Assembly: GCA_965224085.1 (NCBI GenBank)
Contig: CBDCYI010000009.1
Span: forward strand, 628,162 to 692,161
Reading direction: 5' to 3'
Length of the DNA stretch: 64,000 bases
DNA from: Candidatus Marinacidobacterales bacterium
GTDB taxonomy: Bacteria > Acidobacteriota > Vicinamibacteria > Marinacidobacterales > SMYC01
How positions within the stretch are numbered: the first letter of the stretch is position 1; each line of letters starts with the position of its first letter. Below are positions 3,828 to 41,281 of the stretch, one piece after another. The notes under the pieces are model-generated. The model had not been told where the DNA came from and ran no database searches. It saw nothing but the letters and a program-made list of their open reading frames with translations. Position numbers and translations under genes: made by a program.

Positions 3828-5186
3828 ATGAAGATGCGCGACAACGCTCGCTCACTGCATTTTAGCGGCGAGAGGGTGTGGCGCGCAACTAAGAGGAGTG
3901 CCATGACTCATATCGCTCGGCTTCTATTGTGCTCGACCCTCTTTCTCTCACCCGTCGGCTCGACGCTCGCTGCAGCGGCTGATGAGCAACTCGGCGTGTT
4001 GGTCGTGGCTCATGGCTCGACGGCGGCGTGGAATGCCAACGTCGAAGCCGTGGGGACGATTATTCAACAACACATGCCATCTAAAGCGGCGTACCTGATG
4101 GGTGCGAAGAACCGCACACCGCAGGAGGCGTACGACGAACTGGTCGCGGCTGGTGTCCAGCGGATTGTCGTCGTGCCGCTCCTGGTGTCTTCCTACAACT
4201 CGCACTACGAACAGGTCCGCTTCATTGGCCGCCTTCGCGACGATTACCCGGGCTCCGAACGGATGAAACTCACGCCGCTGCACGGGCCTGCTGACGTTGT
4301 CGACGTTACGCCGGCGCTTGATGCAGATCCGATCCTCGCTGACATCTTGTCCGACCGGGCGCGTGCGCTCAGTCGTGACCCATCCACGGAAAGCCTCGTC
4401 ATCGTGGCACACGGGCCGAACAGCGCCGCAGACGCAGACCGGTGGATGGACGTGATCCGAGAACTTGGTGTCCAAATCCTGTCCCTCGTGCCGTTTAAGG
4501 AGGTCGACGTCCGCCTCTTGCGGGACGATGCGCCCACACCGGTCAAAGACCAGGCGCTCGCGGAGCTCAGACACTCGGTGGCCAACCGTTCAGCGTCGGG
4601 GCGGGTCGTCGTCGTGCCGCTCTTGCTCGGGCCGGGACGCGTCGTCGACCAGATACCCAATGTACTCACTGGATTGGATTACCTCTGGGACGGTCGACCC
4701 GTGCTCCCGGACAGCCGGATCGCTGACTGGGTCATGTTCCAGGTCGAGCATGTATCGGCGCAGCAAGATGCAGCCAGCCGGCAGTCGACAGATGATTTGC
4801 TGACTTTCTTCGATTCCGTGACCGTGACCGCGACGCTCCGGCCGTCGCCGGTACGGGAGATCCCCGGCATGGTGACGGTCGTCGACAGCGAGGTCATTCA
4901 GGCGAGGCTATTCGAGAACCTGTCTGATCTCGTCAAGTACGAACCCGGGGTGTACATCGAAAACAATATGACCCGTCTTGGTCTCAACGGATTCAACATC
5001 CGCGGCATCGGAAGGGATCGCGTGATGACGCAGGTGGACGGCATTCAGACGTCGGAGCAGTTCGACTTCGGGCCTTTCAGCGTGCATCAGCTGGCGCTCG
5101 ATCTCGATGCGTTGAAATCCGTCGAGATCGTGCGGAGTTCCAACTCGGCGCTCTACGGCAGCGATGCCCTCGGCGGCGTGGTGTTG
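3828..5186 (+). pseudogene. 5' portion of a TonB-dependent receptor gene: signal peptide, a tandem CbiX/SirB-like chelatase-fold N-terminal extension, a TonB box (DSVTVTA) and the plug domain. The barrel is lost to the IS5-A insertion at 5187.
   Basis: LGVLVVAHGSTAAW...RIVVVPLLVSSYNSH... and SLVIVAHGPNSA...VVVVPLLLGPGRVVDQIP are CbiX-like repeats. The plug motifs VTVVDSEVIQARLFENLSDLVKYEPGVYIE...GFNIRGIGRDRVMTQVDGI...SVEIVRSSNSALYGSDALGGVV follow. The ORF reads straight into the IS IR. Confidence 0.7.
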
Positions 5187-6269
5187 CCTTGGTGCACAAC
5201 TCCGATAGAGGCCGAGAGCTCGCTTGGCCCCGACTCCCATCACCCGATCATCTCGCTATCAGGCATCCCGAGCGCCGTCATGGTGTTGAGAATCTTGCAC
5301 CCGATCCTTGCCTCGACTCTCTGTGCCGCCAACCCTCTCGCTCGCATCGCTGAGCCCACGATAGCCTTGTAGCGATGGAACGTTGTCTCGACTTTGCTCC
5401 GTTTGCTGTAGCCCGATTCTGTGTGCCACTTTCGTTTGCCGAGCCGAGCTTGTGCTGCAATGTTGCGATTGCGCTGTCGGCTGCTCGCCGGCCCCGATGC
5501 GAGCAGGGCGCCCTTGCGCGGCGGTATCAGCACCCTCGGCGAGCGATGAGCGCTGTGATTCTCGATTGCCTCATAGACGCCGCTGGCGTCGTATGCGGTG
5601 TCAGCTCTGGCCGATGAGATGGGACTGTCGCTCTGTCCGACAAGCGATGCAACCCGCGATGAATCGCGGGCTCTTTTGCTCGTCAGCTCGCCGGCGACGA
5701 CTTCGCCAGTCTGCTCGTCGACACACAGATGGAGCTTGCGATAGTCCCTGCTCTTTTGTGCTCTGCGCAGCTGGCCGGCGTGGACAGCGAGACCGCTGCT
5801 GTCGATCAAGATGTGCAACGGCGTCTTCTGCTTGTCTTGGTAGAAGGGGACCTTACCCAGCTTCGCCTTGCGCCTCGAAATCGTGGTGTGATCGGGCACA
5901 TCATTGTCTAGCTTCATCAGAGCGAACAACGACCGCAGCAATCCCTCGCTCTGCCTAGATGACAGATGAAACACCATGCCCAGGGTGACAGCCGTCTCGA
6001 TGGCGTGGTTCGAGTACTTGCGTTGACGGCCCGGTTTCCTCCTCCTCGGCCGGGGCGCGTCCCAGTTCACAAGCTTGCCGGCGGTGAGCGAGATCCAGAC
6101 GGTCAGGCTCCCACGGTTGCGTAGACCCGCCTCATATTCACGCCAATTCCTCACGCGATAGGCCTTCTTCACATACTTCCGCTGAGTGCGTTTGAAAATG
6201 CTCATGGGGAACCTCGAATCCGTGAGTAAAGGACAATTGTGGACCGAGATCGCGAGTTGTGCACCAAGG
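5187..6269 (-). mobile_element. IS5-family element type A, complete copy (1083 bp) with 16-bp IRs CCTTGGTGCACAACTC.
   Basis: About 99% identical to 8398-9480 in inverted orientation. Terminal IRs are present at both ends. Confidence 0.9.
5240..6205 (-). CDS. IS5-family DDE transposase (type A), 321 aa.
   Basis: MSIFKRTQRKYVKKAYRVRNWREYEAGLRNRGSLTVW...LHILIDSSGLAVHAG...YRKLHLCVDEQTGEVVAGELTS...ADTAYD... is near-identical to the ORF at 8462-9427. Confidence 0.9.
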   Translation of the reverse strand: MSIFKRTQRKYVKKAYRVRNWREYEAGLRNRGSLTVWISLTAGKLVNWDAPRPRRRKPGRQRKYSNHAIETAVTLGMVFHLSSRQSEGLLRSLFALMKLDNDVPDHTTISRRKAKLGKVPFYQDKQKTPLHILIDSSGLAVHAGQLRRAQKSRDYRKLHLCVDEQTGEVVAGELTSKRARDSSRVASLVGQSDSPISSARADTAYDASGVYEAIENHSAHRSPRVLIPPRKGALLASGPASSRQRNRNIAAQARLGKRKWHTESGYSKRSKVETTFHRYKAIVGSAMRARGLAAQRVEARIGCKILNTMTALGMPDSEMIG

Positions 6270-6439
6270 CAACACATTGATGATGCTGTGGATCTACGTT
6301 AACGAGGTCAACAAGATGCTCGCATGGAACAACTTTAACCTCCTGAATTACCTACCGCCATTGGCCTTCTTCATAAGCAGGGATGGTGTTGACAATTAGG
6401 TGGTGCGGACTCCAATTATTTCCGTTTCGTCCATTAACC

Positions 6440-6507
6440 CCAATGGTTGGTGTATGACCAACGCATAGTGTAGGGTAGAAGGTGTATATTTTATTCTACC
6501 TGGAGAG
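6440..6507 (+). promoter_or_regulatory. Putative vapBC promoter/operator: a TATATT -10 element (about 6485-6490) sits inside a perfect 7-bp inverted repeat GGTAGAA...TTCTACC (6474-6500), followed by a GGAGAG RBS.
   Basis: Palindrome read directly from the sequence. An upstream TTGACA is at 6389-6394. Type II antitoxins typically autoregulate through such operators. Confidence 0.45.
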
Positions 6508-6771
6508 ATGGTGATGGGCCTCAACATCAAGAATGACGAAACCTGTCAACTTGCTGGCGAACTGGCGCGGTTGACTGGCGAGACCATGACTGGCGCGATT
6601 ACCGTCGCGCTGCGCGAACGCCTCGAGCGCGAGAAACGCGAGCGCAGCATCGAGGCTCGAGTTCAAGAACTGCGTGCCATCGCAAAGCGCTGTGCCAAGC
6701 TGCTGGGCCCGGGACCCTCGGCCGTGGAGCATGGCGATGTGCTCTACGACGAGCGAGGATTGCCCAAGTGA
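6508..6771 (+). CDS. vapB: Type II antitoxin, VapB-like.
   Basis: Small (87 aa) protein immediately upstream of a PIN toxin, with a 4-bp overlap (GTGA). Confidence 0.75.
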   Translation: MVMGLNIKNDETCQLAGELARLTGETMTGAITVALRERLEREKRERSIEARVQELRAIAKRCAKLLGPGPSAVEHGDVLYDERGLPK

Positions 6772-7154
6772 TCGTCGATAGCTCGGCGGTGCTCGCCGTT
6801 CTGTACCGCGAGCCGGACGCGGAACGCTACGAGACGGCGATCGCCGCTGCCCTGAATTGCCGCATGTCGGTCGCCAATGTGCTGGAGGCATCCATCGTTG
6901 TGGAAGGCCGCGGCGGCGAAGCGGCGGGGCATGAACTCGATGTGTTCCTGGACAAGGCCGGGATCGCGTTGACGCCGGTCATGGTCGAACATATTGAAGC
7001 AGCCCGCTTGGCTTGGCGGCGCTTCGGCAAGGGCAATCACCAGGCGGCGCTGAATTTCGGTGACTGTTTCGCCTACGCGCTCGCGAAAACGACGGGTGAG
7101 CCGCTCCTGTTCAAGGGCAAGGACTTCGCCCAAACAGATATCGAGCCGGCATGA
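6768..7154 (+). CDS. vapC: PIN-domain toxin VapC.
   Basis: MIVDSSAVLAVL...E...D shows PIN acidic residues. It is 128 aa and translationally coupled to the antitoxin. Confidence 0.8.
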   Translation: MIVDSSAVLAVLYREPDAERYETAIAAALNCRMSVANVLEASIVVEGRGGEAAGHELDVFLDKAGIALTPVMVEHIEAARLAWRRFGKGNHQAALNFGDCFAYALAKTTGEPLLFKGKDFAQTDIEPA

Positions 7155-7579
7155 GCGAAAGCCCAGATTATAGCTTCCCTGCCTTGGCGGGCCGCGCGTG
7201 CTGGCAGCGCAGGATCTGAACGAGCTGGTCGCGGAACTCGCCTCGCGACCCGGAGAGACATCGTTTGCTGGCCGCTAAATTAGCGGCGGGCCGAGGTTAT
7301 CCGCGCCTTGCGCAAGCCGCTTCAAATCCTCGGCCAACGCTTCGGTCCGCCCCAGCGGCGACTTCCGGAGCCTGTCCCCTTGCTACACGACCAGCTTGTT
7401 TTTTGTACAGTGAGTTGTTTGAGTTCCTTGTCCGGTTTCGTTATTTGTCCCCTTAGAGTTGTTCGAGGTCTGACCGGCGAATCCGCCACCCGCCGGCCTT
7501 GATTGCCTTGATTGCCTTGATTTTCCCGCTCTTAATTTCCCGCACCAGCCACGCTTTAGGCATTCTGCGCCCGAAGGGT

Positions 7580-8397
7580 GGCGTTGTTGCACCGCTCTTG
7601 GCTGAGCGCGAAATCTACCCTATGGTGGTGGCCGAGGTAATGTTCGACCATGAAGTATCCCAAGCGCAGCCAGTACAAACACGCGAAACAGAAGAAGTAC
7701 CACGTTTCCAACTGGGCGGAATACAACGAAGGGCTGCGCCGCCGGGGCGATTTGACGGTTTGGTTTGACGAGGAGGCAATCGCGAACTGGAAGGCCGACA
7801 AGAGCGGTAAGCTTGGCGGTCAACGGGTCTATTCAGAGATGGCGATTGAAACGGGCCTGGTTGTCCGGATGGTGTACAAGCTTGCCTACCGCCAAACCGA
7901 AGGCTTCTTGCACTCGATCGCCTCGCTTCTCCGGCTGTGTATCGAGATCCCGGACTACTCGACGTTGTGTCGGCGGTCGAGGCTGCTCCGCAAGAAGCTG
8001 CGGATTCGGAAAGCCGCAAGCAATCAACCAATCCACCTGATGATCGATAGCACGGGCTTGAGGATTCATGTTGGAACCACCCGCAAACCGCCAAAGCAGC
8101 GCGCCTGGCGCAAGTTGCACATCGCCGTTGATCGCAAGACCGGCAACATTGTTGCGTCCGAACTGACGGTGTCACGAGCTCGCGACGCAACGCGAGTCCC
8201 CCCTTTGCTAACACAGATTCAAGCACCTATAGCGTCGGTGGCGGCGGACAGTGCATACGACAAGGAAGCGGTCTACGAAGCCATCGAAGCGCACAGCCCT
8301 GAACGAAGGACGCGCGTGGTGATTCCGCCGCAACGAAACGCCACGCTCAGTCAGAATTCGAACACCGCAATGCGGGAACGCGACCGCCATATTCGTG
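7580..8397 (+). mobile_element. IS5-family element type B, 3'-truncated copy (left IR GGCGTTGTTGCACCGC plus 5' 75% of the transposase). It was cut by insertion of IS5-A at 8398.
   Basis: Identical left end and ORF to the full copy at 15884-16969. Homology stops at ...cgccatattcgtgc, where the IS5-A IR begins. Confidence 0.85.
7650..8397 (+). pseudogene. IS5-B transposase, C-terminally truncated (about 249 of 320 aa).
   Basis: MKYPKRSQYKHAKQKKYHVSNWAEYNEGLRRRGDLTVWFDEEAI... matches the 320-aa ORF at 15952-16914 up to ...RERDRHIRA. Confidence 0.85.
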
Positions 8398-9480
8398 CCT
8401 TGGTGCACAACTCGCGATTTCGGTCCACAATTGTCCTTTACTCACGGATTCGAGGTTCCCCATGAGCATTTTCAAACGCACTCAGCGGAAGTATGTGAAG
8501 AAGGCCTATCGCGTGAGGAATTGGCGTGAATATGAGGCGGGTCTACGCAATCGCGGGAGCCTGACCGTCTGGATCTCGCTCACCGCCGGCAAGCTTGTGA
8601 ACTGGGACGCGCCCCGGCCGAGGAGGAGGAAACCGGGCCGTCAACGCAAGTACTCGAACCACGCCATCGAGACGGCTGTCACCCTGGGCATGGTGTTTCA
8701 TCTGTCATCTAGGCAGAGCGAGGGATTGCTGCGGTCGTTGTTCGCTCTGATGAAGCTAGACAATGATGTGCCCGATCACACCACGATCTCGAGGCGCAAG
8801 GCGAAGCTGGATAAGGTCCCCTTCTACCAAGACAAGCAGAAGACGCCGTTGCACATCTTGATCGACAGCAGCGGTCTCGCTGTCCACGCCGGCCAGCTGC
8901 GCAGAGCACCAAATAGCAGGGACTATCGCAAGCTCCATCTGTGTGTCGACGAGCAGACGGGCGAAGTCGTCGCCGGCGAGCTGACGAGCAAAAGAGCCCG
9001 CGATTCATCGCAGGTTGCATCGCTTGTCGGACAGAGCGACAGTCCCATCTCATCGGCCAGAGCTGACACCGCATACGACGCCAGCGGCGTCTATGAGGCA
9101 ATCGAGAATCACAGCGCTCATCGCTCGCCGAGGGTGCTGATACCGCCGCGCAAGGGCGCCCAGCTCGCATCGGGGCCGGCGAGCAGCCGACAGCGCAATC
9201 GCAACATTGCAGCACAAGCTCGGCTCGGCAAACGAAAGTGGCACACAGAATCGGGCTACAGCAAACGGAGCAAAGTCGAGACAACGTTCCATCGCTACAA
9301 GGCTATCGTGGGCTCAGCGATGCGAGCGAGAGGGTTGGCGGCACAAAGAGTCGAGGCAAGGATCGGGTGCAAGATTCTCAACACGATGACGGCGCTCGGG
9401 ATGCCTGATAGCGAGATGATCGGATGATGGGAGTCGGGGCCAAGCGAGCTCTCGGCCTCTATCGGAGTTGTGCACCAAGG
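8398..9480 (+). mobile_element. IS5-family element type A, complete copy (1083 bp).
   Basis: IRs CCTTGGTGCACAACTC at both ends. It is inserted into IS5-B on one side and into hsdS on the other. Confidence 0.9.
8462..9427 (+). CDS. IS5-family DDE transposase (type A), 321 aa.
   Basis: Same protein as 5240-6205 with about 5 aa differences. Confidence 0.9.
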   Translation: MSIFKRTQRKYVKKAYRVRNWREYEAGLRNRGSLTVWISLTAGKLVNWDAPRPRRRKPGRQRKYSNHAIETAVTLGMVFHLSSRQSEGLLRSLFALMKLDNDVPDHTTISRRKAKLDKVPFYQDKQKTPLHILIDSSGLAVHAGQLRRAPNSRDYRKLHLCVDEQTGEVVAGELTSKRARDSSQVASLVGQSDSPISSARADTAYDASGVYEAIENHSAHRSPRVLIPPRKGAQLASGPASSRQRNRNIAAQARLGKRKWHTESGYSKRSKVETTFHRYKAIVGSAMRARGLAAQRVEARIGCKILNTMTALGMPDSEMIG

Positions 9481-10693
9481 CAGAGTCGTTCCGGTTCTTG
9501 GGTCAAACGGACGCGTGGGTTTTCATAATGCAGCGAACACAAAGGCTCCTTGCATCGTGATCGGACGAAAGGGATCGTTCGGGAAGGTAAACTATTCTGA
9601 ACGCCCTGTGTTTGCAATCGATACAACTTTCTTTGTGGATAACCGTTTTTCATCAGCTCATATTCGGTGGCTTTTTTTCCTCTTTGGTTGGCTTCGTCTG
9701 GATGAGGTAACGAGAGACTCAGCGGTACCTGGTCTCGACCGGGAGGATGCTTACCAGAAGCTCATAGTAGTGCCTCCTTTTTCAGAGCAAGCCGCCATCG
9801 TCCGCTACCTCGACCATGCGGATCGTCGCATCCAGCGCTACATCCGCGCCAAGCAGAAGCTGATCACGCTGCTGGAGGAGCAGAAGCAGGCCATCATCCA
9901 GCGCGCCGTGACGCGCGGCCTCGACCCCAACGTCCGCCTCAAGCCCTCCGGCGTGGAGTGGCTGGGGAAAGTGCCGACGCATTGGGAAAGGCGAAGACTG
10001 AAGATTCTTCTCCGACCGGTTGACCGACGATCTGCCACTGGAGCGGAGACACTCCTGTCGTTGCGACGAGACCACGGAATCGTTATTTACGCTGAGCACT
10101 TCGCCAGACCTTCACAGAGCAGGTCCTTGGTGGGGTTTAAGCTCGTTGCCGTGGGTCAGCTAGTCGTCAACCGTCTCCAGGCTAACAATGGGTTGGTCTT
10201 TTGCTCGGGTATTAACGGGCTCGTGAGCCCTGACTACTCTGTGTTCGAGATGAGAAAACCACTCCAGATGCAGTACCTGAGCGATCTTCTTAGAACTTCT
10301 CGCTATCGTTCGCACTTCCGGCGAGAGTCCACAGGGCTCGGTACTGGGACCGCAGGTTTTCTACGACTTTATGACGACAAATTTCTTGAGACGGAAGTGT
10401 TCTTGCCGCCAGTACAGGAGCAGATTCTGATATCCAACTCACTCGCAAACGATATTGCCAAAGTCAAGCGTCTGATGGAACAACAGCAGCGGCAGCTACA
10501 GTTCTTTAATGAGTTCCGAACTCGGCTGATTACCGATGTCGTTACCGGCAAGCTCGATGTGCGGGAGGCGGCCTCCCGGCTGCCGGACGAGGTCGAGGAA
10601 CCGGAGCCGCTAGACGAGACCGACGCCCTCACCGACGGCGAGGAAGAGCCCACCGACGATCGCGACGCCGCCCCCGAAGAGGCCGCGGTGTGA
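9481..10693 (+). pseudogene. hsdS: Type I R-M specificity subunit HsdS with its N-terminal part removed. It keeps the end of target-recognition domain 1, the central conserved region, target-recognition domain 2 and the C-terminal coiled coil. Truncated by IS5-A.
   Basis: ...VPVLGSNGRVGFHNAANTKAPCIVIGRKGSFGKV...PPFSEQAAIVRYLDHADRRIQRYIRAKQKLITLLEEQKQAIIQRAVTRGLDPNVRLKPSGVEWLGKVPTHWE... shows classic HsdS conserved spacers. The reading frame starts inside the IS IR. Confidence 0.8.
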
Positions 10694-13692: not shown

Positions 13693-13792
13693 AGGGCTCG
13701 GGCTCCCGAGCTGGCTGACGAGGGAGGGCGCGAGTACCCGCTCAAGCATTGCCGGACCCTGATTGAGGCCGAATCCGAGGCAAGTAAGGACA

Positions 13793-14116
13793 CCAAGGAG
13801 GCCCAAGCCCACCTGGACCAGAACGTGCTAGCCGGCTACGCCACGGTAGCCCTGGCCTCGATGTTGGACCCCTCGGGTGACCTCTTTTCCGATGCCGTAC
13901 GGCCCGGTCAGCGCCTGTTCTCCTACTTTGCGCAAACGTGGCACTCGAAAATCGCGATTAGAGACGAAACCCGAAAATGACGCCAGTTCAGCCCTTCCAG
14001 TGCGTCTCTGGTGCCACCTACCCCTGCAAAACCCCGCCAACCGCGCGGAAAATCTCATCCGTCTCTGCAGTGCCACAATTTGCAAGACTGGGTGGCGGAT
14101 GGCGCAGTCTGGAGCT
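13793..14116 (+). repeat. Copy R1 of a ~320-bp sequence that natively flanks the 3' end of tRNA-Ser (compare 40878-41196). It ends in ...gggtggcgga, which is the last 7 nt of the tRNA (TCCGCCA) on the other strand.
   Basis: About 85% identity to 40878-41196. The boundary falls exactly at tRNA position -7 from the 3' end. Confidence 0.8.
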
Positions 14117-14277
14117 ATCCGGTCTCTGGGTTTATGGGCAGTTATGGGCAGTCTCTAAAAAGGGCAGAGTTTCAAGCCGGTCATCGACCCTCCACAGGCC
14201 GACGTCGAACTCGAAGTACTATTTGCACCATACGCTGATCCGACTCGAAGCAGATCTGGCTCTAGAGTTTCCGTGCT

Positions 14278-14505
14278 GTCTGGTCCGCCACCAAGTCCGG
14301 CCAATTGCGGCACTGCAGAGACGGGCGGGATTTTCCACGCGGTTGGCGGGGTTTTGCAGGATTAAGTGGCACCAGAGACGCGCTAGAAGGGCTGAAAAGG
14401 CCTCATTTTCGGTTTTGGTCTCTAATCGCTATTTTCGAGTGCCACGTTTGCGCCCAAATAGGAGAACGGGCGCTGACAGGGCCGTGCCGCGTCGGAAAAG
14501 AGGCC
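14278..14505 (-). repeat. Copy R3, inverted relative to R1. It starts with the tRNA 3'-end fragment (tccgccacc) and runs about 225 bp until it is cut by the IS110 end.
   Basis: The reverse complement of 14290-14470 matches 13925-14100 and 41020-41190. R1 and R3 form a large inverted repeat around a 161-bp spacer (14117-14277). Confidence 0.8.
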
Positions 14506-14512
14506 GCCCGAG

Positions 14513-15867
14513 GGTACTTTCGACTGACACTCCCGGCCGAAGGCATTTTTCATGATATGGATTGATCGGGAACGAGGCTGAAGCCGAGTCGGGTAGCTTT
14601 GCGTCGGAGATTACTCAGGAGGCGTTGCTGGTATTGCCTTTCATAGGCGTCCTGACCGAGCTCAATGAACTCCTCTCCAGTCGCAAGCATGCGGAAGTAG
14701 ATGGTCGCTATTTTACGGGCGGTAGCTGTGATGGCCTTTGGAGCACCTCGTCGCGATCGGATTCGTCGATAGAAAGCGCCGAGCGCGGTTTGGGTATTGC
14801 GGACAGCGCACGCGGCGAGGCGAAAGAGTTTTGCAGCACGACTGGAGCTCATTGGGGTGGCCCGGCGAAAGATTCGACCAGCGGACTCCTTATTATTCGG
14901 TGCGAGAGCTAGCCATGAGGTGAAGTGCTTGTCACTTTTCCACGGGCTCATGTCGCAACCGGTTTCTCCTACGAGCTGCAGAACGGCATAGCTACCTAAG
15001 CCGGGAACCCTGGTTAGGTCCACCCCCGTGAGTCCCAATAGAGACTCAGCGAGCGGAAAGCGCGGCCCGTTGCCGCTACGCGCTCGCCGTGTCCGTGGTT
15101 TCGGCTTAGGCCGAGCGTCCTGAGGCCGGGTCTCCAATTTGGACAGGCATCTCTCGATCCGCTTGTCACAGTCTTCCATTTTCTCTTGATAGAAATCGTA
15201 CAACTCCACCGACTGTTGAAGAGCGAAAACATGCTCGCTCCGATAGTTACCTTCTAAGGCTTTCGCGATCGTGGCCTCATCGTTGTGGCAACGTTCATGC
15301 CTCAGTTTTGCTAGGTCACGAGGATCTCGCTCTCCTCTCAAGATCGCTCGGATGATCGCAAGGCCGGTGACTCCGGTCACGTCGCGCAGGACGTGTTGTA
15401 GCTGGAGCCCCATTTGGTTGAGCGCTTTGTGCATATGCTGAATGTGGCGAGCCGCTGACTCCACCAGCGAGCTTCGTTGGCGGGTGTATGCCCTTAGCTC
15501 GCAAATCGCCGATTCCGGCCGAAAGGTTTTTGGGAGTAGCCCGAATGTATGCAGCTGTTGCAGCCACTCCGCATCCGACACGTCTGACTTGCGCCCAGAT
15601 ACGTTTTTCACTTTGCGAGCATCGACCAGATAGACTTCAAATCCCTCGTCTTCCAACAACTCGTACAGTGGAATCCAATAAACTCCGGTCGACTCCATCG
15701 CCACCGTGCACACGCCGCACGCCTTCAGCCAATTGGCCAGCTCTCGCAGCGAGCATACAAAGCTCTGAAACGTGCGGACATGTTCGCCCTCAGGAGTGCG
15801 CCCCTTCGGGACTGCCGCCACGATTGACTCCGCTCCAATATCAATCCCTGCAGCATCTAGATTTACC
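14513..15867 (-). mobile_element. IS110-family element type a, 1355 bp, with no obvious IRs and very short non-coding ends.
   Basis: Identical in length and about 99% in sequence to 20102-21456. Its ends were defined by where the two copies diverge from their flanks (...gtcgaaagtacc / ggtaaatctag...). Confidence 0.8.
14550..15866 (-). CDS. IS110-family (DEDD) transposase, about 438 aa. The true start codon is uncertain.
   Basis: ...NLDAAGIDIGAESIVAAVPKG... (N-terminal DEDD region) ...TGVYWIPLYELLEDEGFEVYLVDARKVKNVSGRKSDVSDAEWLQQL... C-terminal transposase_20-like region. Confidence 0.8.
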   Translation of the reverse strand, partial: VNLDAAGIDIGAESIVAAVPKGRTPEGEHVRTFQSFVCSLRELANWLKACGVCTVAMESTGVYWIPLYELLEDEGFEVYLVDARKVKNVSGRKSDVSDAEWLQQLHTFGLLPKTFRPESAICELRAYTRQRSSLVESAARHIQHMHKALNQMGLQLQHVLRDVTGVTGLAIIRAILRGERDPRDLAKLRHERCHNDEATIAKALEGNYRSEHVFALQQSVELYDFYQEKMEDCDKRIERCLSKLETRPQDARPKPKPRTRRARSGNGPRFPLAESLLGLTGVDLTRVPGLGSYAVLQLVGETGCDMSPWKSDKHFTSWLALAPNNKESAGRIFRRATPMSSSRAAKLFRLAACAVRNTQTALGAFYRRIRSRRGAPKAITATARKIATIYFRMLATGEEFIELGQDAYERQYQQRLLSNLRRKATRLGFSLVPDQSIS

Positions 15868-15883
15868 GTGTCGAGCTCGTGCG

Positions 15884-16969
15884 GCGTTGTTGCACCGCTC
15901 TTGGCTGAGCGCGAAATCTACCTATGGTGGTGGCCGAGGTAATGTTCGACCATGAAGTATCCCAAGCGCAGCCAGTACAAGCACGCGAAGCAGAAGAAGT
16001 ACCACGTTTCCAACTGGGCGGAATACAACGAAGGGCTGCGCCGCCGGGGCGATTTGACGGTCTGGTTTGACGAGGAGGCAATCGCGAACTGGAAGGCCGA
16101 CAAGAGCGGTAAGCCTGGCGGTCAACGGGTCTATTCAGAGATGGCGATTGAAACGGGCCTGGTTGTCCGGATGGTGTACAAGCTTGCCTACCGCCAAACC
16201 GAAGGCTTCTTGCACTCGATCGCCTCGCTTCTCCGGCTGTGTATCGAGATCCCGGACTACTCGACGTTGTGTCGGCGGTCGAGGCTGCTCCGCAAGAAGC
16301 TGCGGATTCGGAAAGCCGCAAGCAATCAACCAATCCACCTGATGATCGATAGCACGGGCTTGAGGATTCATGTTGGAACCACCCGCAAACCGCCAAAGCA
16401 GCGCGCCTGGCGCAAGTTGCACATCGCCGTTGATCGCAAGACCGGCAACATTGTTGCGTCCGAACTGACGGCGTCACGAGCTCGCGACGCAACGCGAGTC
16501 CCCCCTTTGCTAACACAGATTCAAGCACCTATAGCGTCGGTGGCGGCGGACAGTGCATACGACAAGGAAGCGGTCTACGAAGCCATCGAAGCGCACAGTC
16601 CTGGACGAAGGACGCGCGTGGTGATTCCGCCGCAACGAAACGCCACGCTCAGTCAGAATTCGAACACCGCCATGCGGGAACGCGACCGCCATATTCGTGC
16701 AATCGAAAGACACGGCCGACGTGAATGGTACAAGCTCTCAGGCTGCACCGAGCGAAGCATGGTGGAGAACGCGGTCTATCGTTACAAGGCGATCATGGGG
16801 CCCGAGATGCGGGCTCGAACGTTGGCGAGGCAACGAGTTGAACACCGAATTGGGTGCGAGATACTCAACAAGATGACCGCGCTCGGCATGCCCGATACTT
16901 ACTGCGCCGGGTGACTCTCCGACCGGCACAGGGAGGTCAGCGATTTGCTCCGGGCCGTGCAACAACGCC
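15884..16969 (+). mobile_element. IS5-family element type B, full-length reference copy (1086 bp) with IRs GGCGTTGTTGCAC(C/G)GC.
   Basis: Left and right IRs found. Three other copies in the window share the ends. Confidence 0.9.
15952..16914 (+). CDS. IS5-family DDE transposase (type B), 320 aa.
   Basis: Same architecture as the type A transposase (KRSQYKHAKQKKYHVSNWAEYNEGLRRRGDLTVW...). Intact ORF. Confidence 0.9.
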   Translation: MKYPKRSQYKHAKQKKYHVSNWAEYNEGLRRRGDLTVWFDEEAIANWKADKSGKPGGQRVYSEMAIETGLVVRMVYKLAYRQTEGFLHSIASLLRLCIEIPDYSTLCRRSRLLRKKLRIRKAASNQPIHLMIDSTGLRIHVGTTRKPPKQRAWRKLHIAVDRKTGNIVASELTASRARDATRVPPLLTQIQAPIASVAADSAYDKEAVYEAIEAHSPGRRTRVVIPPQRNATLSQNSNTAMRERDRHIRAIERHGRREWYKLSGCTERSMVENAVYRYKAIMGPEMRARTLARQRVEHRIGCEILNKMTALGMPDTYCAG

Positions 16970-17184
16970 ACGACGATGTGAAGTCCAGGCTACGCGTACG
17001 TGCGGCGGGTAACGGCCGTTCCATGGAAGAGGAGGCGCGCTTGATCCTCCGGGATGCGGTCGAACGCAGGCCGAGTTCCAATAACCTCGCAGACATCATC
17101 CGCGCGCACTTCGGGCCATCCAAGGGCGTGGATCTGGAGTTGCCACCGCGCGATGCGGGCCGAGAGCCACCGTCCTTCGATTGA
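16970..17184 (+). CDS. StbC/FitA-like ribbon-helix-helix antitoxin that has lost about its first 10 codons to the IS5-B insertion. The remaining frame starts inside the IS right IR.
   Basis: ...DDVKSRLRVRAAGNGRSMEEEARLILRDAVERRPSSNNLADIIRAHFG... matches plasmid-stability/VapB-type antitoxins, which begin M..LTIRNLDDEVK. Confidence 0.65.
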
Positions 17185-17194
17185 GGGAACGACC

Positions 17195-17617
17195 ATGTTT
17201 CTCCTGGATACCAACGTCGTATCCGAGTTGATGCGTACGTCGCCGGACTCCGCAGTCGAGGCATGGATTGCCGGCCACCCCGTCAAGGACCTGTTCTTCT
17301 CGGCGATTGGCGAATCCGAACTGCGCTATGGAGCCGCGATCATGCCGGTAGGCCAGCGCCGTGAAACGCTCGTCTCTGATATCGAGACGATGCTGCACGC
17401 TGCCTTCGAAAACCGCATATCGCCGTTCGACAGCGGGGCGGCGCGTGCTTATGCGAATATCGCCGCCAAGCGCCGGGGCGCAGGACGTGCCGTCGCTCCG
17501 GCGGACTGCCAGATCGCAGCGATTGCCCGGGCACGCGGCATGGCGGTGGCGACGCGCGACGTTCGAGACTTCGAGGATATGGGGGTCGAACTCTTCAATC
17601 AATGGGACGGCGCATGA
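17195..17617 (+). CDS. vapC: PIN-domain toxin VapC (second copy).
   Basis: MFLLDTNVVSELMRTSP...AIGESELRYGAAIMPVGQRRETL...CQIAAIARARGMAVATRDVRDFEDMGVELFNQWDG; PIN catalytic D/E residues. Confidence 0.85.
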   Translation: MFLLDTNVVSELMRTSPDSAVEAWIAGHPVKDLFFSAIGESELRYGAAIMPVGQRRETLVSDIETMLHAAFENRISPFDSGAARAYANIAAKRRGAGRAVAPADCQIAAIARARGMAVATRDVRDFEDMGVELFNQWDGA

Positions 17618-17820
17618 GCAGAACGACGGAAGCGTTTTCCCGCGTCAAAATCGACGCTCAAAAGCAGGAATTGCTGGCGAAACTTGAAGTGATGCAAAAA
17701 GAATTCAAAGCCGCCAAAAAATATGCGGTGAAGAAAAAGCTGGGGAACGAGATCGCCCTGACCATGGCGAGGCTGCGGGAGATCATCGAGAACCCACACG
17801 GGCCGCTCGGCATAGGTTGA
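17614..17820 (+). CDS. Small basic predicted coiled-coil ORF (68 aa) whose start overlaps the vapC stop (ATGA).
   Basis: MSRTTEAFSRVKIDAQKQELLAKLEVMQKEFKAAKKYAVKKKLGNEIALTMARLREIIENP. The 4-nt overlap suggests translational coupling. Lower GC than its neighbours. Confidence 0.3.
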   Translation: MSRTTEAFSRVKIDAQKQELLAKLEVMQKEFKAAKKYAVKKKLGNEIALTMARLREIIENPHGPLGIG

Positions 17821-17827
17821 ACTGTTG

Positions 17828-17860
17828 TTGGTCCAGCTCAATTTGACAGTACCGTTCGGA
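17828..17860. repeat. Solo copy of the IS6 terminal inverted repeat (ccagctcaatttgacagtaccgttcgg).
   Basis: 17/17 identity of ccagctcaatttgacag with the IS6 right end at 3211-3227. The following bases resemble the IS6 left end (aacggtaYtgtcaa). Confidence 0.55.
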
Positions 17861-18199
17861 GGCTCTTCAGCAAAAAGTCGATCCAGCGGTACGCGATCTT
17901 CTTTTTTGCGGATCACAACTAAGCTGCTGATTTATGATCTATTTCAAAAAGGCCGAGTTTTGGCACAGGACGGGGCCTGCTTACAAGTTTTTGGAATCGC
18001 GGGTCTTGAGTTCGTTTATGTTTTTGGACACCACGGGATTGGAAACATGCCGACCTTCTCCGGCTGAACCAAGGTAAGATTGTCAGTGCCGTAACCGACG
18101 AGGAGGTCGGAGTCTACAACTTGGTCCATACTCCCTATCGGCCGGCGTAGCCTTAGAGAGCTCCCCCTGAGAGTCTGAAATCAAGGAAGGTCCCACCCG

Positions 18200-20101: not shown

Positions 20102-21419
20102 GGTAAATCTAGATGCTGCAGGGATTGATATTGGAGCGGAGTCAATCGTGGCGGCAGTCCCGAAGGGGCGCACTCCTGAGGGCGAACATGTCCGCACGTT
20201 TCAGAGCTTTGTATGCTCGCTGCGAGAGCTGGCCAATTGGCTGAAGGCGTGCGGCGTGTGCACGGTGGCGATGGAGTCGACCGGAGTTTATTGGATTCCA
20301 CTGTACGAGTTGTTGGAAGACGAGGGATTTGAAGTCTATCTGGTCGATGCTCGCAAAGTGAAAAACGTATCTGGGCGCAAGTCAGACGTGTCGGATGCGG
20401 AGTGGCTGCAACAGCTGCATACATTCGGGCTACTCCCAAAAACCTTTCGGCCGGAATCGGCGATTTGCGAGCTAAGGGCATACACCCGCCAACGAAGCTC
20501 GCTGGTGGAGTCAGCGGCTCGCCACATTCAGCATATGCACAAAGCGCTCAACCAAATGGGGCTCCAGCTACAACACGTCCTGCGCGACGTGACCGGAGTC
20601 ACCGGCCTTGCGATCATCCGAGCGATCTTGAGAGGAGAGCGAGATCCTCGTGACCTAGCAAAACTGAGGCATGAACGTTGCCACAACGATGAGGCCACGA
20701 TCGCGAAAGCCTTAGAAGGTAACTATCGGAGCGAGCATGTTTTCGCTCTTCAACAGTCGGTGGAGTTGTACGATTTCTATCAAGAGAAAATGGAAGACTG
20801 TGACAAGCGGATCGAGAGATGCCTGTCCAAATTGGAGACCCGGCCTCAGGACGCTCGGCCTAAGCCGAAACCACGGACACGGCGAGCGCGTAGCGGCAAC
20901 GGGCCGCGCTTTCCGCTCGCTGAGTCTCTATTGGGACTCACGGGGGTGGACCTAACCAGGGTTCCCGGCTTAGGTAGCTATGCCGTTCTGCAGCTCGTAG
21001 GAGAAACCGGTTGCGACATGAGCCCGTGGAAAAGTGACAAGCACTTCACCTCATGGCTAGCTCTCGCACCGAATAATAAGGAGTCCGCTGGTCGAATCTT
21101 TCGCCGGGCCACCCCAATGAGCTCCAGTCGTGCTGCAAAACTCTTTCGCCTCGCCGCGTGCGCTGTCCGCAATACCCAAACCGCGCTCGGCGCTTTCTAT
21201 CGACGAATCCGATCGCGACGAGGTGCTCCAAAGGCCATCACAGCTACCGCCCGTAAAATAGCGACCATCTACTTCCGCATGCTTGCGACTGGAGAGGAGT
21301 TCATTGAGCTCGGTCAGGACGCTTATGAAAGGCAATACCAGCAACGCCTCCTGAGTAATCTCCGACGCAAAGCTACCCGACTCGGCTTCAGCCTCGTTCC
21401 CGATCAATCCATATCATGA
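20082..21419 (+). CDS. IS110-family (DEDD) transposase, 445 aa as predicted. The ATG comes from the flanking 33-bp repeat.
   Basis: MSILTSRVNLDAAGIDIGAESIVAAVPKGR... is identical to the copy at 14550-15866. Confidence 0.8.
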   Translation: MSILTSRVNLDAAGIDIGAESIVAAVPKGRTPEGEHVRTFQSFVCSLRELANWLKACGVCTVAMESTGVYWIPLYELLEDEGFEVYLVDARKVKNVSGRKSDVSDAEWLQQLHTFGLLPKTFRPESAICELRAYTRQRSSLVESAARHIQHMHKALNQMGLQLQHVLRDVTGVTGLAIIRAILRGERDPRDLAKLRHERCHNDEATIAKALEGNYRSEHVFALQQSVELYDFYQEKMEDCDKRIERCLSKLETRPQDARPKPKPRTRRARSGNGPRFPLAESLLGLTGVDLTRVPGLGSYAVLQLVGETGCDMSPWKSDKHFTSWLALAPNNKESAGRIFRRATPMSSSRAAKLFRLAACAVRNTQTALGAFYRRIRSRRGAPKAITATARKIATIYFRMLATGEEFIELGQDAYERQYQQRLLSNLRRKATRLGFSLVPDQSIS

Positions 21420-21456
21420 AAAATGCCTTCGGCCGGGAGTGTCAGTCGAAAGTACC
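20102..21456 (+). mobile_element. IS110-family element type a, second copy (1355 bp), inserted into an IS256-like transposase gene.
   Basis: Same ends as the copy at 14513-15867. The right end abuts the truncated IS256-like ORF at 21460-21783. Confidence 0.8.
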
Positions 21457-21459
21457 TTC

Positions 21460-23599: not shown

Positions 23600-25092
23600 G
23601 CACGCTACTGAAAACGAGACCAAGGGCCTGGGAAGGCATATGGTCTATTTAAGGTGCTTCCGCCATCAAGTGATGGGATGGACTCCTCCGCTGACATAGA
23701 CGGCATCGATGTGCCAAAGTCAGTCGAAAGAACGCATCGAAAAAGGAGGAGTTCCGAATGAAAGATACGACGATCGCTGTGGATCTTGCAAAGAACGTCT
23801 TCGAGATTGCCATCTCGCGCGAAGCGGGGAAGGTGTCCAAGCAACTCCGTGTGAGTCGACCTAAGTTGGTGTCGTTTTTTGCGAAACAGAGCGCTGCCAC
23901 CGTGCTTCTCGAAGCCTGCGGCTCGGCTCACTTCTGGGCAAGGACGTTGCGACGGTTGGGACACGACGTCGTCCTGCTCCCACCTCACCTCGTAAGGCCG
24001 TATCGACGCGGGAGCAAGAACGACCGCGCGGACACCAAAGCTTTGCTCGAGGCTTACCGGAACGAGGAGATTCTTTCGGTGCCCATCAAGTCCGTGCGCC
24101 AGCACACCCTCGCCGCGCTCCATCGCCTACGCTCAGGATGGCTCTCCACACGGACCGCACGCATCAATGCCGTACGCGGGGTCCTGCGCGAGCTCGGACT
24201 CTTCATCCCCAAGGGCGCTCACTTCGTCGTGCCCGCCATCTCCGAGCTCGTCGAAGACGCTGATTCTGATTTGCCCGACGTGCTCCGTCCGCACCTGCGT
24301 GATGCGTGCTCCGAGATTCGAGAGCTCAAGGACAAGTGCGCTGGCATCGAGCACGAGCTCAAGGCGCTCACCAAGCAGCTTCCTGAGGTGCAACGACTTC
24401 TCACCATTCCCGGCATCGGACTTCTGACCGCGACCGCCATCGTCGGCTTCGTTGGGGATCTGCGCCGCTTCCCATCGGGACGCCGCTTCTCGAGTTACCT
24501 CGGCCTCGTTCCCAAAGAGAACTCCAGTGGTGACATTCGCCGCCTCGGGCGCATCACCAAGCGTGGCGACTCCTACCTCCGTACGCTCCTCACGCAGGGC
24601 GGACGCGCCGTGCTCCGAGCGGCCAACGTCAGCAAGAGCCCGCCCGACAAGCTCCGCGCCTGGGCGCGGAAGCTCCACCGCTCGCGGGGACACAACAAAG
24701 CCGCGATTGCTGTCGCCAACAAACTCGCCCGGATAGTCTGGGCCGTCTCCACCCGCGAGAGTGAATTCCAGTCGGTGCCCGCGGCCGCATAGAGGCTCCA
24801 CTTTCGTGTTTTCCTTCTTCCCTTCCAACAGAGGCTGCGACGATACCCATCCAACTGATGGCGTACCGGTCGGACCGGCGCGGGGTCAAGCCGATAGCAA
24901 CACTGGCCCTCAGAGGTCGCTCAAAGTGATTGGCTCCTCGCGCGCGGATTTTCCGTCATGGCCCGGAGCACCCAAGACGCTCCTCACTGAGGCCGTAGAT
25001 ATGTTTGCAGTCTGACCCACTCGTCACCGATTTGGACGAGCAGCTCTGAGGAAGACTTTTTTGAGAAAGGTGTTGATTGAGGAGTCCAGATA
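23600..25092 (+). mobile_element. IS110-family element type b. The left end is approximate. It has a ~300-bp non-coding right end after the transposase.
   Basis: Contains the 344-aa IS110-family transposase. The right end was defined by the tandem-duplication junction ...gaggagtccagata. Confidence 0.6.
23758..24792 (+). CDS. IS110-family (DEDD) transposase type b, 344 aa.
   Basis: MKDTTIAVDLAKNVFEIAIS... (DEDD N-terminus) ...LTIPGIGLLTATAIVGFVGDLRRFPSGRRFSSYLGLVPKENSSGDIRRLGRITKRGDSYLR... (C-terminal HhH/transposase_20). Confidence 0.9.
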   Translation: MKDTTIAVDLAKNVFEIAISREAGKVSKQLRVSRPKLVSFFAKQSAATVLLEACGSAHFWARTLRRLGHDVVLLPPHLVRPYRRGSKNDRADTKALLEAYRNEEILSVPIKSVRQHTLAALHRLRSGWLSTRTARINAVRGVLRELGLFIPKGAHFVVPAISELVEDADSDLPDVLRPHLRDACSEIRELKDKCAGIEHELKALTKQLPEVQRLLTIPGIGLLTATAIVGFVGDLRRFPSGRRFSSYLGLVPKENSSGDIRRLGRITKRGDSYLRTLLTQGGRAVLRAANVSKSPPDKLRAWARKLHRSRGHNKAAIAVANKLARIVWAVSTRESEFQSVPAAA

Positions 25093-27592: not shown

Positions 27593-27762
27593 GATTGCTT
27601 GCGGCTTTCCGAATCCGCAGCTTCTTGCGGAGCAGCCTCGACCGCCGACACAACGTCGAGTAGTCCGGGATCTCGATACCGAGCCCGAGAAGCGAGGCGA
27701 TCGAGTGCAAGAAGCCTTCGGTTTGGCGGTAGGCAAGCTTGTACACCATCCGGACAACCAGG

Positions 27763-28783: not shown

Positions 28784-31951
<3,168 letters not shown>

Positions 31952-31952
31952 G

Positions 31953-33359: not shown

Positions 33360-33363
33360 GGCA

Positions 33364-37925: not shown

Positions 37926-37938
37926 GGCCACGTCCTCC

Positions 37939-38922: not shown

Positions 38923-39487
38923 ATGAGACCACGGGTACGGCGACACGCGCGAATATTGGTGATTTGCCTGGCGTGGACCGCGATCGCGGCCGGCCAGGAA
39001 AAATCCCTCGATCGTTTGTCGGAGGAACATCGTTCTTGGCTTCGACGCGATGTCAAATACATCATCACCGATCGAGAGAAAGACGTTTTTCTATCTCTCG
39101 AAACGTTGGAGGAGCGGGGTCGCTTCATCGAGGCCTTCTGGCGAAGGCGTGATCCGTCGCCCGCGGCGGGCGCGAACGAGTTCAAGGAAGAGCACTACCA
39201 GCGCATCGAGTATGCCAACAAGTTTCTCGGGCGCGGGACGTTCCGGGAGGGATGGGAGACCGATCGCGGCCGCTATTACATCATGCTGGGAGAGCCGCGG
39301 AGCATCCAGCGGTTCGCGGGCCATCACACCATCTTCGACTCCGAGCTGTGGATGTACGAAGGCGATGTCCGATTGGGCCTGCCCCGCCGTTCCCGCTCGA
39401 CCTGGCCATCACTTCTACGAGGTGTTCTTCGATCTTGCGAGCCCTCTCCTCCCAGCTATAGAGGCGAGCGTCTTCGAAGGCGCGCGA
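38923..39487 (+). pseudogene. GWxTD-domain protein (signal peptide plus GWxTD domain), interrupted by IS5-B at 39488 and possibly frameshifted near 39385.
   Basis: ...FWRRRDPSPAAGANEFKEEHYQRIEYANKFLGRGTFREGWETDRGRYYIMLGEPRSIQ...ELWMY; the downstream sequence continues in another frame. Confidence 0.6.
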
Positions 39488-40575
39488 GGCGTTGTTGCAC
39501 CGCTCTTGGCTGAGCGCGAAATCTACCTATGGTGGTGGCCGAGGTAATGTTCGACCATGAAGTATCCCAAGCGCAGCCAGTACAAGCACGCGAAGCAGAA
39601 GAAGTACCACGTTTCCAACTGGGCGGAATACAACGAAGGGCTGCGGCGCCGGGGCGATTTGACGGTCTGGTTTGACGAGGAGGCAATCGCGAACTGGAAG
39701 GCCGACAAGAGCGGTAAGCCTGGCGGTCAACGGGTCTATTCAGAGATGGCGATTGAAACGGGCCTGGTTGTCCGGATGGTGTACAAGCTTGCCTACCGCC
39801 AAACCGAAGGCTTCTTGCACTCGATCGCCTCGCTTCTCCGGCTGTGTATCGAGATCCCGGACTACTCGACATTGTGTCGGCGGTCGAGGCTGCTCCGCAA
39901 GAAGCTGCGGATTGGGAAAGCCGCAAGCAATCAACCAATCCACCTGATGATCGATAGCACGGGCTTGAGGATTCATGTTGGAACCACCCGCAAACCGCCA
40001 AAGCAGCGCGCCTGGCGCAAGTTGCACATCGCCGTTGATCGCAAGACCGGCAACATTGTTGCGTCCGAACTGACGGCGTCACGAGCTCGCGACGCAACGC
40101 GAGTCCCCCCTTTGCTAACACAGATTCAAGCACCTATAGCGTCGGTGGCGGCGGACAGTGCATACGACAAGGAAGCGGTCTACGAAGCCATCGAAGCGCA
40201 CAGCCCTGGACGAAGGACGCGCGTGGTGATTCCGCCGCAACGAAACGCCACGCTCAGTCAGAATTCGAACACCGCCATGCGGGAACGCGACCGCCATATT
40301 TCGTGCAATCGAAAGACACGGCCGACGTGAATGGTACAAGCTCTCAGGCTACACCGAGCGAAGCATGGTGGAGAACGCGGTCTATCGTTACAAGGCGATC
40401 ATGGGGCCCGAGATGCGGACTCGAACGTTGGCGAGGCAACGAGTTGAACACAGAATTGGGTGCGAGATACTCAACAAGATGACCGCGCTCGGCATGCCCG
40501 ATACTTACTGCGCCGGGTGACTCTCCGACCGGCACAGGGAGGTCAGCGATTTGCTCCGGGCCGTGCAACAACGCC
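39488..40575 (+). mobile_element. IS5-family element type B, fourth copy (1088 bp), carrying a frameshifted transposase gene.
   Basis: Both IRs present. There is a 1-bp insertion (atatttcgtg versus atattcgtg) relative to the reference copy. Confidence 0.9.
39557..40520 (+). pseudogene. IS5-B transposase inactivated by a +1 frameshift at about 40305.
   Basis: The ORF breaks into 39557-40330 and a downstream frame. It is otherwise about 99% identical to 15952-16914. Confidence 0.85.
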
Positions 40576-40877
40576 CCTGCCACGATCGGTTTCTCCGTAC
40601 CGGTCGACCCGACGATGCCACCGGCGTCTTATGAATGTGGAGAGGCTCGCTCTTGCGACTGTTTTCAAATGTCCGGCCTATTGTTCTGGACGCCAGGGCT
40701 CGACCCTAGACGGTCGTTGGAGATCCTCGCCTATTCGAACAAGGTGACACCAATGCCCTGGGAGGGTGACGTTGCGGCCGGCGATTCTGGTCCCCCCGTA
40801 CGCGGAGGGCAACACGGTCCAGAAGCGGGTTGCCACGCTCCCTGGGCGAAGACCTGGGAGCCAGGTCCTGGGCAAAG

Positions 40878-41196
40878 ACGGACATAAGGGAGGCCCGGGC
40901 CGCACCTGGACCAGAACGTGCTAGCCGGCTACGCCGCCGTAGCCCCGGCCTCGATTCTGGACCTCTCGGGTGGCCTCTTTTCCGCTGCCGCAGGGCGCGG
41001 TCCGCGGCCCTCTTCCTTCTTTAGCGCAAACTTGTCCCTCGGAAATCGAGATTAGAGACGAAAACCGAAAATGAGGCCCCCTCAGCCCTTCTAGCGCGTC
41101 TCTGGTGCCACCTAATCCTGGAAAACCCCGCCAACCGCGCGGAAAATCCCACCCGTCTCTGCAGGGCCACAATTGGCCAGACTGGGTGGCGGAGAG
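40878..41196 (+). repeat. Copy R2 (presumably the native one) of the tRNA-Ser 3'-flanking sequence. It abuts the 3' end of tRNA-Ser.
   Basis: Matches 13793-14116. Confidence 0.8.
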
Positions 41197-41281
41197 GGAG
41201 GGATTCGAACCCTCGACACAGGCTCATCACCCGTGTAACTGCTTAGCAGGCAGCCCTGATCAGCCACTCCAGCACCTCTCC
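41187..41281 (-). tRNA. tRNA-Ser with anticodon GCU (long variable arm). CCA is encoded.
   Basis: Reverse complement GGAGAGGTGCTGGAGTGGCTGATCAGGGCTGCCTGCTAAGCAGTTACACGGGTGATGAGCCTGTGTCGAGGGTTCGAATCCCTCCCTCTCCGCCA. Acceptor stem GGAGAGG/CCTCTCC, T-loop TTCGAAT, anticodon loop CTGCTAA. Confidence 0.85.

Follow-up and report, generated by a model that had tools for sequence, protein, structure and literature searches.

The tycheposons of Prochlorococcus are integrative elements that target tRNA genes and accrete there in tandem, and a large serine recombinase (LSR) is present in 27 of 937 of them (10.1101/2020.12.28.424599). Here we analyzed a stretch of 64,000 nucleotides (nt), called the window below, from a Candidatus (Ca.) Marinacidobacterales bacterium (contig CBDCYI010000009.1, positions 628,162 to 692,161). 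In the window, ~320 nt on the 3′ side of a tRNA-Ser gene (anticodon GCT) recur behind the type I restriction gene hsdR, and once more in inverted orientation. We call this repeat R and its copies R1, R2 and R3 (Table 1). R is most likely a recombinase-proximal attachment (att) arm, of which the window holds copies without the recombinase. As with the tycheposons, integration would be site-specific at tRNA genes, newer insertions would displace older elements from the tRNA, decayed remnants and repeated pieces of att sites would be left behind, and rearrangements would be centered on the att sites. The tycheposon repeat, however, is a partial tRNA, whereas here only 6-7 nt of the tRNA are shared and the repeat is an element arm of 140 to >600 nt. 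Also unlike tycheposons, most copies here lie away from tRNA genes, the host is an acidobacterium and the LSR is linked to a DUF2924 gene.

In Mycobacterium tuberculosis, different copies of REP13E12, a repeat of ~1.4 kb that is not known to be an att arm of the element family, can be occupied by phiRv1 in different strains. The element phiRv1 encodes a serine integrase and integrates into this multicopy repeat (Bibb and Hatfull 2002, as cited in PMC9317374). The likeness to R is that a serine-recombinase element would dock in a dispersed multicopy repeat; the difference is that R is similar to the arm next to the recombinase in related elements, and that it also borders on tRNA genes.

Canonical phage-type LSRs, such as those of A118, Bxb1 and phiC31, use sites of ~40-50 bp without long arms and recombine attP with attB only (PMC3783163). 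The system described here shares with them the Resolvase and Recombinase domains, a short common core and precise junctions without target duplication. It differs from them in a conserved arm of at least 130 nt with phased GTCTC motifs and in an arm junction apparently reused with many partners. The LSRs TnpX of Tn4451, TndX of Tn5397 and Ccr of SCCmec excise circles and insert them at several sites resembling their own joint, and Ccr-type elements stack in tandem at the 3′ end of one gene, together with recombinase-less pseudo-elements. These enzymes belong to other recombinase clades, with other targets (rlmH, GA sites) and hosts, and we know of no description of tRNA targeting or of a long conserved arm for them. 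To our knowledge, tRNA targeting is much less documented for serine integrases than for tyrosine integrases.

A repeat family with one fixed boundary

The preliminary description of the window had proposed three copies of a non-coding sequence with a common end. A three-way alignment confirmed that they are real and that all of them stop at GGTGGCGGA; the ends and extents first given for them had to be corrected (Table 1). Pairwise identity was 85-88% between R1 and R3, 85% over 229 nt between R2 and R3, and 88% over 170 nt between R1 and R2. The homology of R1 to R3 begins at ~13788, and that to other members of the family at 13741. The sequence shared by R3 and the tRNA-Ser gene is TGGCGGA.

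A scan for an exact pattern, with one genome per species, detected 47 further R loci, all in six metagenome-assembled genomes (MAGs) of Ca. Marinacidobacterales (Acidobacteriota, Vicinamibacteria), and its 1-13 copies per MAG are a lower bound. Together with the three window copies, these loci form a family of 50 (L numbers below denote these and other loci that were compared). Where they overlap, the window and OZ240210.1 are 98.8-99.5% identical.

The 3′ boundary of R is fixed at GGCGG(A) in 49 of the 50 copies; the remaining one, L019, stops earlier. In five copies, R borders directly on the 3′ end of a tRNA gene, with one and the same register throughout: two at tRNA-Ser(GCT) (the window and L043), two at tRNA-Ser(TGA) (L002 and L037) and one at tRNA-Asp(GTC) (L044). 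ARAGORN predicted complete tRNAs at all five, with R over their last 6-7 nt; the overlap with tRNA-Asp is TGGCGG. Chance can be excluded because 49 of 50 copies share the GGCGG(A) end, five of them in the same register at three tRNA genes.

The 5′ ends of R are ragged. They lie at -20 to -520 relative to the search motif, mostly at ~-200 to -220, and are joined to unique DNA. The long 5′ part of R3 is homologous to L021, L030 and L040 as far as -520 from the anchor. Far upstream, conservation is ~50%; it climbs to 90-99% over the final 200 nt.

Partners of R across the core

In 42 of the 50 copies, R1 included, R is followed by a conserved left end (LE) of 27 nt with the consensus TGG(T/C)GCAG..GGAGCTATCCGGTCTC. 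The three window copies had been described as diverging right after GGCGGA. They do differ from one another there, but the next 27 nt of R1, being this LE, are not unique. LE variants follow the class of the downstream sequence, not R. LE was also considered as a degenerate tRNA 3′ half; this was rejected, as a by-eye comparison gave a match only over the 7-nt core.

Complete or partial LSR coding sequence comes after LE in 24 loci, on the same strand in each of them. The gene is on the strand opposite to R and convergent on it, with the stop codons of full-length copies at ~+790 to +960 from the anchor. The LSR of 553 amino acids (aa) matches the Pfam families Resolvase (PF00239, 6.9e-38) and Recombinase (PF07508, 7.2e-12); no zinc-ribbon match to Pfam was found in it. 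A DUF2924 gene lies upstream of the LSR gene, and the whole unit measures ~3.15 kb. The right end of this LSR element is a 58-nt sequence, RE58 (…TTTTGGCACAGGACGGGGT), whose terminus resembles that of R (…TTGGCCAGACTGGGT) over the last ~20 nt of R. In a single case (L022), RE58, GT, GGCGGA and LE are joined in this order, as would be expected if the LSR element had formed a circle or a tandem joint.

RE58 is much commoner than the LSR and has variable flanks. The left junctions, R to LE, are uniform; the right junctions join RE58 to a variable sequence, which is GGCGGA only in L011. Several flanks beyond RE58 are further repeats, which suggests accretion. RE58 ends are co-oriented 40:15 downstream of R versus 15:19 upstream, which hints at arrays.

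A left module (TGTGCTCCGCAAAAAGTCGATCC…) precedes 7 or 8 R copies at variable distance, and most R copies lack it. Combined with RE58, it also makes up units of 110-2500 nt, some of which have cargo genes and some of which have none; a number of these units contain a single gene. No transposase was found in the left-module-to-RE58 units examined, and no matching dinucleotides were found at the two ends of the miniature elements. In L045, the DNA ~290-260 nt before the R anchor has a left-module element directly after a sequence like a type I-E CRISPR repeat (GAGTTCCCCGCACGCGCGGGGATGAACCG).

The gap between the inverted copies R1 and R2 is 184 nt (14100-14283), instead of the 161 bp given before. 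After LE it contains the tandem repeat already noted there (TTATGGGCAG twice, 14132-14151), a weak RE58-like stretch (~14141-14172, 24 of 31 nt in a local alignment) and a 58-nt terminal fragment of another dispersed repeat (~14177-14234), 91-97% identical to L046, L020 and L009. The last 49 nt, which abut R2 and form its partner beyond the core, are unique sequence. As single-stranded DNA, the inverted copies would fold. The suggested cruciform is a poor candidate with a match of 88% across a 184-nt spacer that is itself pieced together from fragments of repeats.

In related loci, LE is followed (at +126 to +213 after R) by a hypervariable segment of constant length, ~44 nt, in otherwise near-identical LSR elements. 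It consists of tandem T-rich words of 9-10 nt: TTATGGGCAG twice in the window, and TTTATAGAG twice or AACAGGGAATT twice elsewhere. Such words may be A/T tracts in phase, or else variable repeats to which a protein binds.

Comparison of R with its neighbors across the core

Pairwise identity of R (0.80-0.955) and identity of the adjacent LSR element were uncorrelated (r = -0.02). For example, R was 95.5% identical where the LE regions were 57% identical, and 85% identical where the elements were 92% identical. The hsdR-R1 junction is orthologous in L035, L036 and L039, with another partner beyond the core. In the comparison of the window with L035, identity was 99.2% on the hsdR side, 98.4% in R and 85% in LE, and the match was at random level beyond +125. 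At the level of sequence, these comparisons show uncoupled histories on either side of the core. The junctions are precise at a short core that is common to tRNA 3′ ends and LE.

The tRNA-Ser site is differently occupied in related genomes. At the orthologous Memo/tRNA-Ser locus, L048-L050 (87.5% identity) and the more distant L051 align with the window only from 41187/41186, and they carry other DNA at the position of R3. In L051, tRNA-Gln and hemE follow the same tRNA-Ser. R had been read as a duplicated chromosomal flank of tRNA-Ser; this reading fails, as the orthologous flank of tRNA-Ser in L048-L051 has no R, and six genomes have R at 47 or more other loci. R is most likely a variant of an ordinary tRNA-targeting element and not duplicated chromosome. 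The other proposal, that a boundary inside the tRNA 3′ end marks a site-specific recombination junction at a tRNA attB, was borne out: the boundary recurs at tRNA-Ser(GCT), tRNA-Ser(TGA) and tRNA-Asp, synteny breaks there, the two sides of the core have uncoupled histories, and a recombinase family with such behavior is linked to R.

L048-L050 carry a different island of 10 kb on the 3′ side of tRNA-Ser(GCT). It is AT-rich-ended and encodes an AlpA-like protein, a protein of 317-404 aa without a Pfam match, and an IS91-type Zn/Y2 transposase.

LSR relatives at tRNA genes in metagenomes

Metagenomic homologs of the LSR (43-71% identity) were collected with their flanks, and 59 loci had at least 350 nt downstream. 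In 21 of the 59, the LSR gene is followed by a convergent tRNA gene, whose 3′ end faces the LSR stop codon from the opposite strand. The distance from stop codon to tRNA 3′ end is 170-540 nt in 20 of the 21 and 1233 nt in the other (L097). The tRNAs are those for Gln, Ser, Glu, Met, Val, Arg, Thr and Leu.

The arms between these genes carry GTCT(C/G) at -88 to -90 in 11 of 21 cases, with a second copy at ~-21 to -31; in 10 of 21 the motif also stands in reverse at -132. In the consensus of R, the positions are exactly -132 (reverse complement), -89 and -32, and a GTCTC motif also lies at +28. At tRNA-Ser(GCT), the arm of L082 ends CAGACTGGG/TGGCGGAG (the slash marks the junction), identical to the end of R. 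As far as the sequences go, the resemblance between R and the metagenomic arms is one of architecture and terminus.

No second tRNA-end repeat was found within 5 kb upstream of the canonical LSR genes, except for a partial tRNA copy in L097. There, part of tRNA-Ser(CGA) is repeated with mutations at its 3′ end (4277-4340), downstream of the LSR homolog and ~970 nt before the intact tRNA (5250-5339). This has the appearance of another, small insertion into the end of that tRNA.

Proposed origin of R and alternatives

We propose, with a probability of about 0.6, that R is the conserved att arm of lineage-specific integrative elements of Ca. Marinacidobacterales, moved by the DUF2924-linked LSR. 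R is physically linked to the LSR element, and its motif register matches that of the arm of tRNA-integrated LSR relatives. From these sequence relations we infer that the LSR may be the enzyme that cuts at the R core. Strand exchange would take place within TGGCGG or immediately 5′ of it; several tRNA genes end in ...CCGCCA, of which TGGCGG is the reverse complement. The cleavage dinucleotide is predicted to fall within GG-GT-GGCGG. Because of the tRNA-Asp junction, the crossover would lie to the left of position 7; the RE58 flanks also diverge right after GGGGT. A fixed exchange point would explain why every R copy stops there and why the partner beyond is interchangeable. As partner there could be the 3′ end of a tRNA, which is the canonical attB, or an LE that belongs to another element, or DNA of a different kind.

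Applied to the window, this proposal would make R3 an arm-to-tRNA junction at tRNA-Ser(GCU) from which the recombinase is gone. R1 would be an older arm behind hsdR, now joined to a tiny LE-bearing remnant, and R2 a third arm, inverted and cut by the IS110-family insertion sequence (IS). R arms may persist as preferred docking sites where elements accrete, and the inverted R1/R2 pair would have arisen by recombination or insertion at such sites.

Several observations weigh against this proposal. The ragged 5′ ends of R, joined to unique DNA, and the spread of R to loci without a tRNA are not explained by it. The sequences outside RE58 vary, with a partner of the GGCGGA type in just one copy, and a simple attP x attB scheme does not cover all junctions. 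The link between R and the metagenomic arms consists only of the motif register and the last 9-12 nt, and an nhmmer search of 84 metagenomic loci with the R profile gave no significant match. Here the LSR gene lies beyond the core and on the opposite strand, as against the canonical order of LSR, arm and tRNA. The window has no LSR or other integrase, and activity in it would be in trans or historical. Serine integrases, moreover, do not normally use attL and attR as substrates without a directionality factor (PMC3783163).

R could instead be the right end of a non-autonomous family resembling miniature inverted-repeat transposable elements, moved by some transposase and not by the LSR, and sharing the left module and an RE58-like terminus; adjacency to tRNA genes would then be a target preference. 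Such a family could account for the variable distance between left module and R, as if by internal deletions, for the wide size range of the left-module-to-RE58 units with and without cargo, for the excess and the variable flanks of RE58, and for its likeness to the last ~20 nt of R. We nevertheless regard it as unlikely. The units examined contain no transposase, the left module is missing from most R copies, and the -132/-89/-32 register and the terminus GACTGGG/TGG of R match the arms of tRNA-integrated LSR relatives.

A further possibility, for which we see only a small chance, is that R and RE58 serve a serine recombinase as sites of the integron attC type. A cassette, with anything from 0 to several kb of cargo, would have one of them as its right boundary, and additional cassettes would enter just after an existing arm. 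Recombinase-less arms would have seeded many dispersed co-oriented arrays, with tRNA 3′ ends as the ancestral entry point. The co-orientation of RE58, the single-gene units between left module and RE58 and the interchangeable core partners fit this scheme without proving it.

The preliminary description had offered R1 and R3 as the decayed attL and attR of one element of ~27 kb (14.1-40.9 kb) at tRNA-Ser, now scrambled by ISs. LE and the R3-tRNA junction do bracket this region in the orientation expected of a single element; the region is IS-rich, and the 3′ flank of tRNA-Ser differs between genomes. Yet R1 and R3 are half-sites of the same type, arm plus core, in direct orientation, and R1 belongs to the hsdR locus, where it is kept in L035, L036 and L039 with other core partners. 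In the window, LE is followed within ~60 nt by repeat fragments and the inverted R2. A search of 14-41 kb for an integrase gave none, with peptidase, sortilin/BNR and monooxygenase genes and IS copies instead. The ten largest open reading frames (ORFs) of 17-38 kb include no integrase, excisionase, replication or transfer genes; they encode S10 and M24 peptidases, sortilin/BNR proteins, EcsC, PIN and IS transposases. Luciferase-like and GWxTD genes lie at 37.9-39.5 kb. A single element of this size is thus quite improbable, and the interval does not convincingly form one island.

Still less probable is that R is a structured non-coding RNA gene or a tRNA-linked transcript with one end at the tRNA terminus. 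The 90-99% conservation of its 3′ ~200 nt, one conserved inverted repeat (AGAGACG … CGTCTCT) and its lack of coding potential would suit an RNA. No Rfam family matched R, however, and the sole hit was a MIR839 artefact from a long inverted repeat. The consensus fold has 27-36 pairs in 314 nt, with 2-3 compensatory pairs against 2.2-3.0 in column-shuffled controls. Ragged ends and interchangeable partners at a fixed point suit a recombination site. A plain segmental duplication or inversion of the tRNA-Ser flank in this genome, by IS-mediated or homologous recombination, is hardly credible: IS110 and IS5-like copies are many and two R copies are IS-cut, but the 47 further copies, spread over six genomes in unrelated surroundings, have an identical 3′ boundary and occur at three different tRNAs, and the orthologous tRNA-Ser flank lacks R.

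Some other readings of R were tried and rejected. ORFs of ~85 aa on the tRNA strand are frameshifted between copies and have the appearance of GC-rich junk, and the long 5′ part has stops in all frames. When 22 LSR proteins were used as tblastn queries, nothing left over from the C-terminus of an LSR was found in R. R2, which stands directly behind an IS110-family transposase gene, was also considered as an IS110 bridge RNA or TnpB omega-RNA. A second IS copy, 100% identical, ends exactly at the R2 start; therefore R2 is an insertion target and not part of the IS.

Implications

If the proposed att arm is confirmed, an acidobacterial lineage uses a DUF2924-linked LSR whose target is right at the CCA terminus of tRNA genes. 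The long att arm of this system would then survive as a multicopy docking site that drives island growth, partner swaps and inversions, for example around a type I restriction locus. The conserved -132/-89/-32 GTCTC register suggests an architecture with accessory proteins, which would be unusual for LSRs. For annotation, the proposal would account for "repeats next to tRNAs" in these MAGs and would advise caution against reading such repeats as island boundaries.

Other features of the window

Table 1. R copies and associated features in the window.
Feature	Position	Strand	Description
R1	13741..14099	+	R arm directly downstream of hsdR; end GGTGGCGGA at 14091-14099; from alignment to R2/R3 and repeat families
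LE	14100..14126	+	27-nt TGGCGCAGTCTGGAGCTATCCGGTCTC directly after R1; conserved left end
Remaining spacer	14127..14283		Repeat-fragment patchwork between LE and R2
R2	14284..14512	-	Inverted R copy; core TCCGCCACC at 14284-14292; 5′ part lost to IS110-family element
IS110-family element	14510..15867	-	1358 bp; truncates R2 (cut at 14510/14512); Pfam DEDD_Tnp_IS110 and Transposase_20
Miniature element	17862..17976	+	~115 nt; left module (…GCAAAAAGTCGATCC…) and 58-nt RE58 right end (17919-17976)
IS5-like (DDE_Tnp_1) copy	39480..40575	+	Cuts 5′ side of R3 at 40575/40576; from repeat analysis and Pfam
R3	40578..41193	+	Long R form; core 41185-41193; last 7 nt (41187-41193) are the tRNA-Ser 3′ end
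tRNA-Ser(GCU)	41187..41281	-	attB-bearing gene (anticodon GCT); 3′ end ...TCCGCCA overlaps R3; ARAGORN and Rfam tRNA

The second IS110-family copy (20102-21459, + strand) is inverted relative to that at 14510-15867 and 100% identical to it. In these copies, only ~27 nt separate the left end from the conserved GIDIG motif of the N-terminus, and an in-frame start codon is found only outside the element (copy 2) or is absent (copy 1). A typical bridge RNA would not fit into the non-coding ends, which measure ~40-46 nt. The window has a third IS110-family gene, different from these two, at 23758-24792. On its 3′ side there is a perfect tandem duplication of 565 bp at 24528-25392 (24528-24827 is 100% identical to 25093-25392), whose sequence is also present in L035, L049 and L050 at 97-99%.

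The IS5-like (DDE_Tnp_1) element has at least five full or partial copies in both orientations (5185-9482, 15875-16973, 26407-27762 and 39480-40575). Copies of it disrupt the type I restriction locus, in which hsdS and hsdR are present and no hsdM was seen. Just past the hsdR stop codon, at 13695-13728, is a 34-nt GC-rich motif, GGCTCGGGCTCCCGAGCTGGCTGACGAGGGAGGG, which is also listed for L039. It is 100% identical in L049 (9708-9741) and L050 (9665-9698), ~100 nt from tRNA-Ser in these relatives without R there.

A VapBC-like pair is in the 16990-17976 region (PIN domain protein at 17054-17617), followed by the miniature element of Table 1. Two paralogous sortilin/BNR genes of ~1060 aa, in 28784-33584 and 34767-37973, are each beside an M24 peptidase gene and are 79% identical over parts, an old local duplication.

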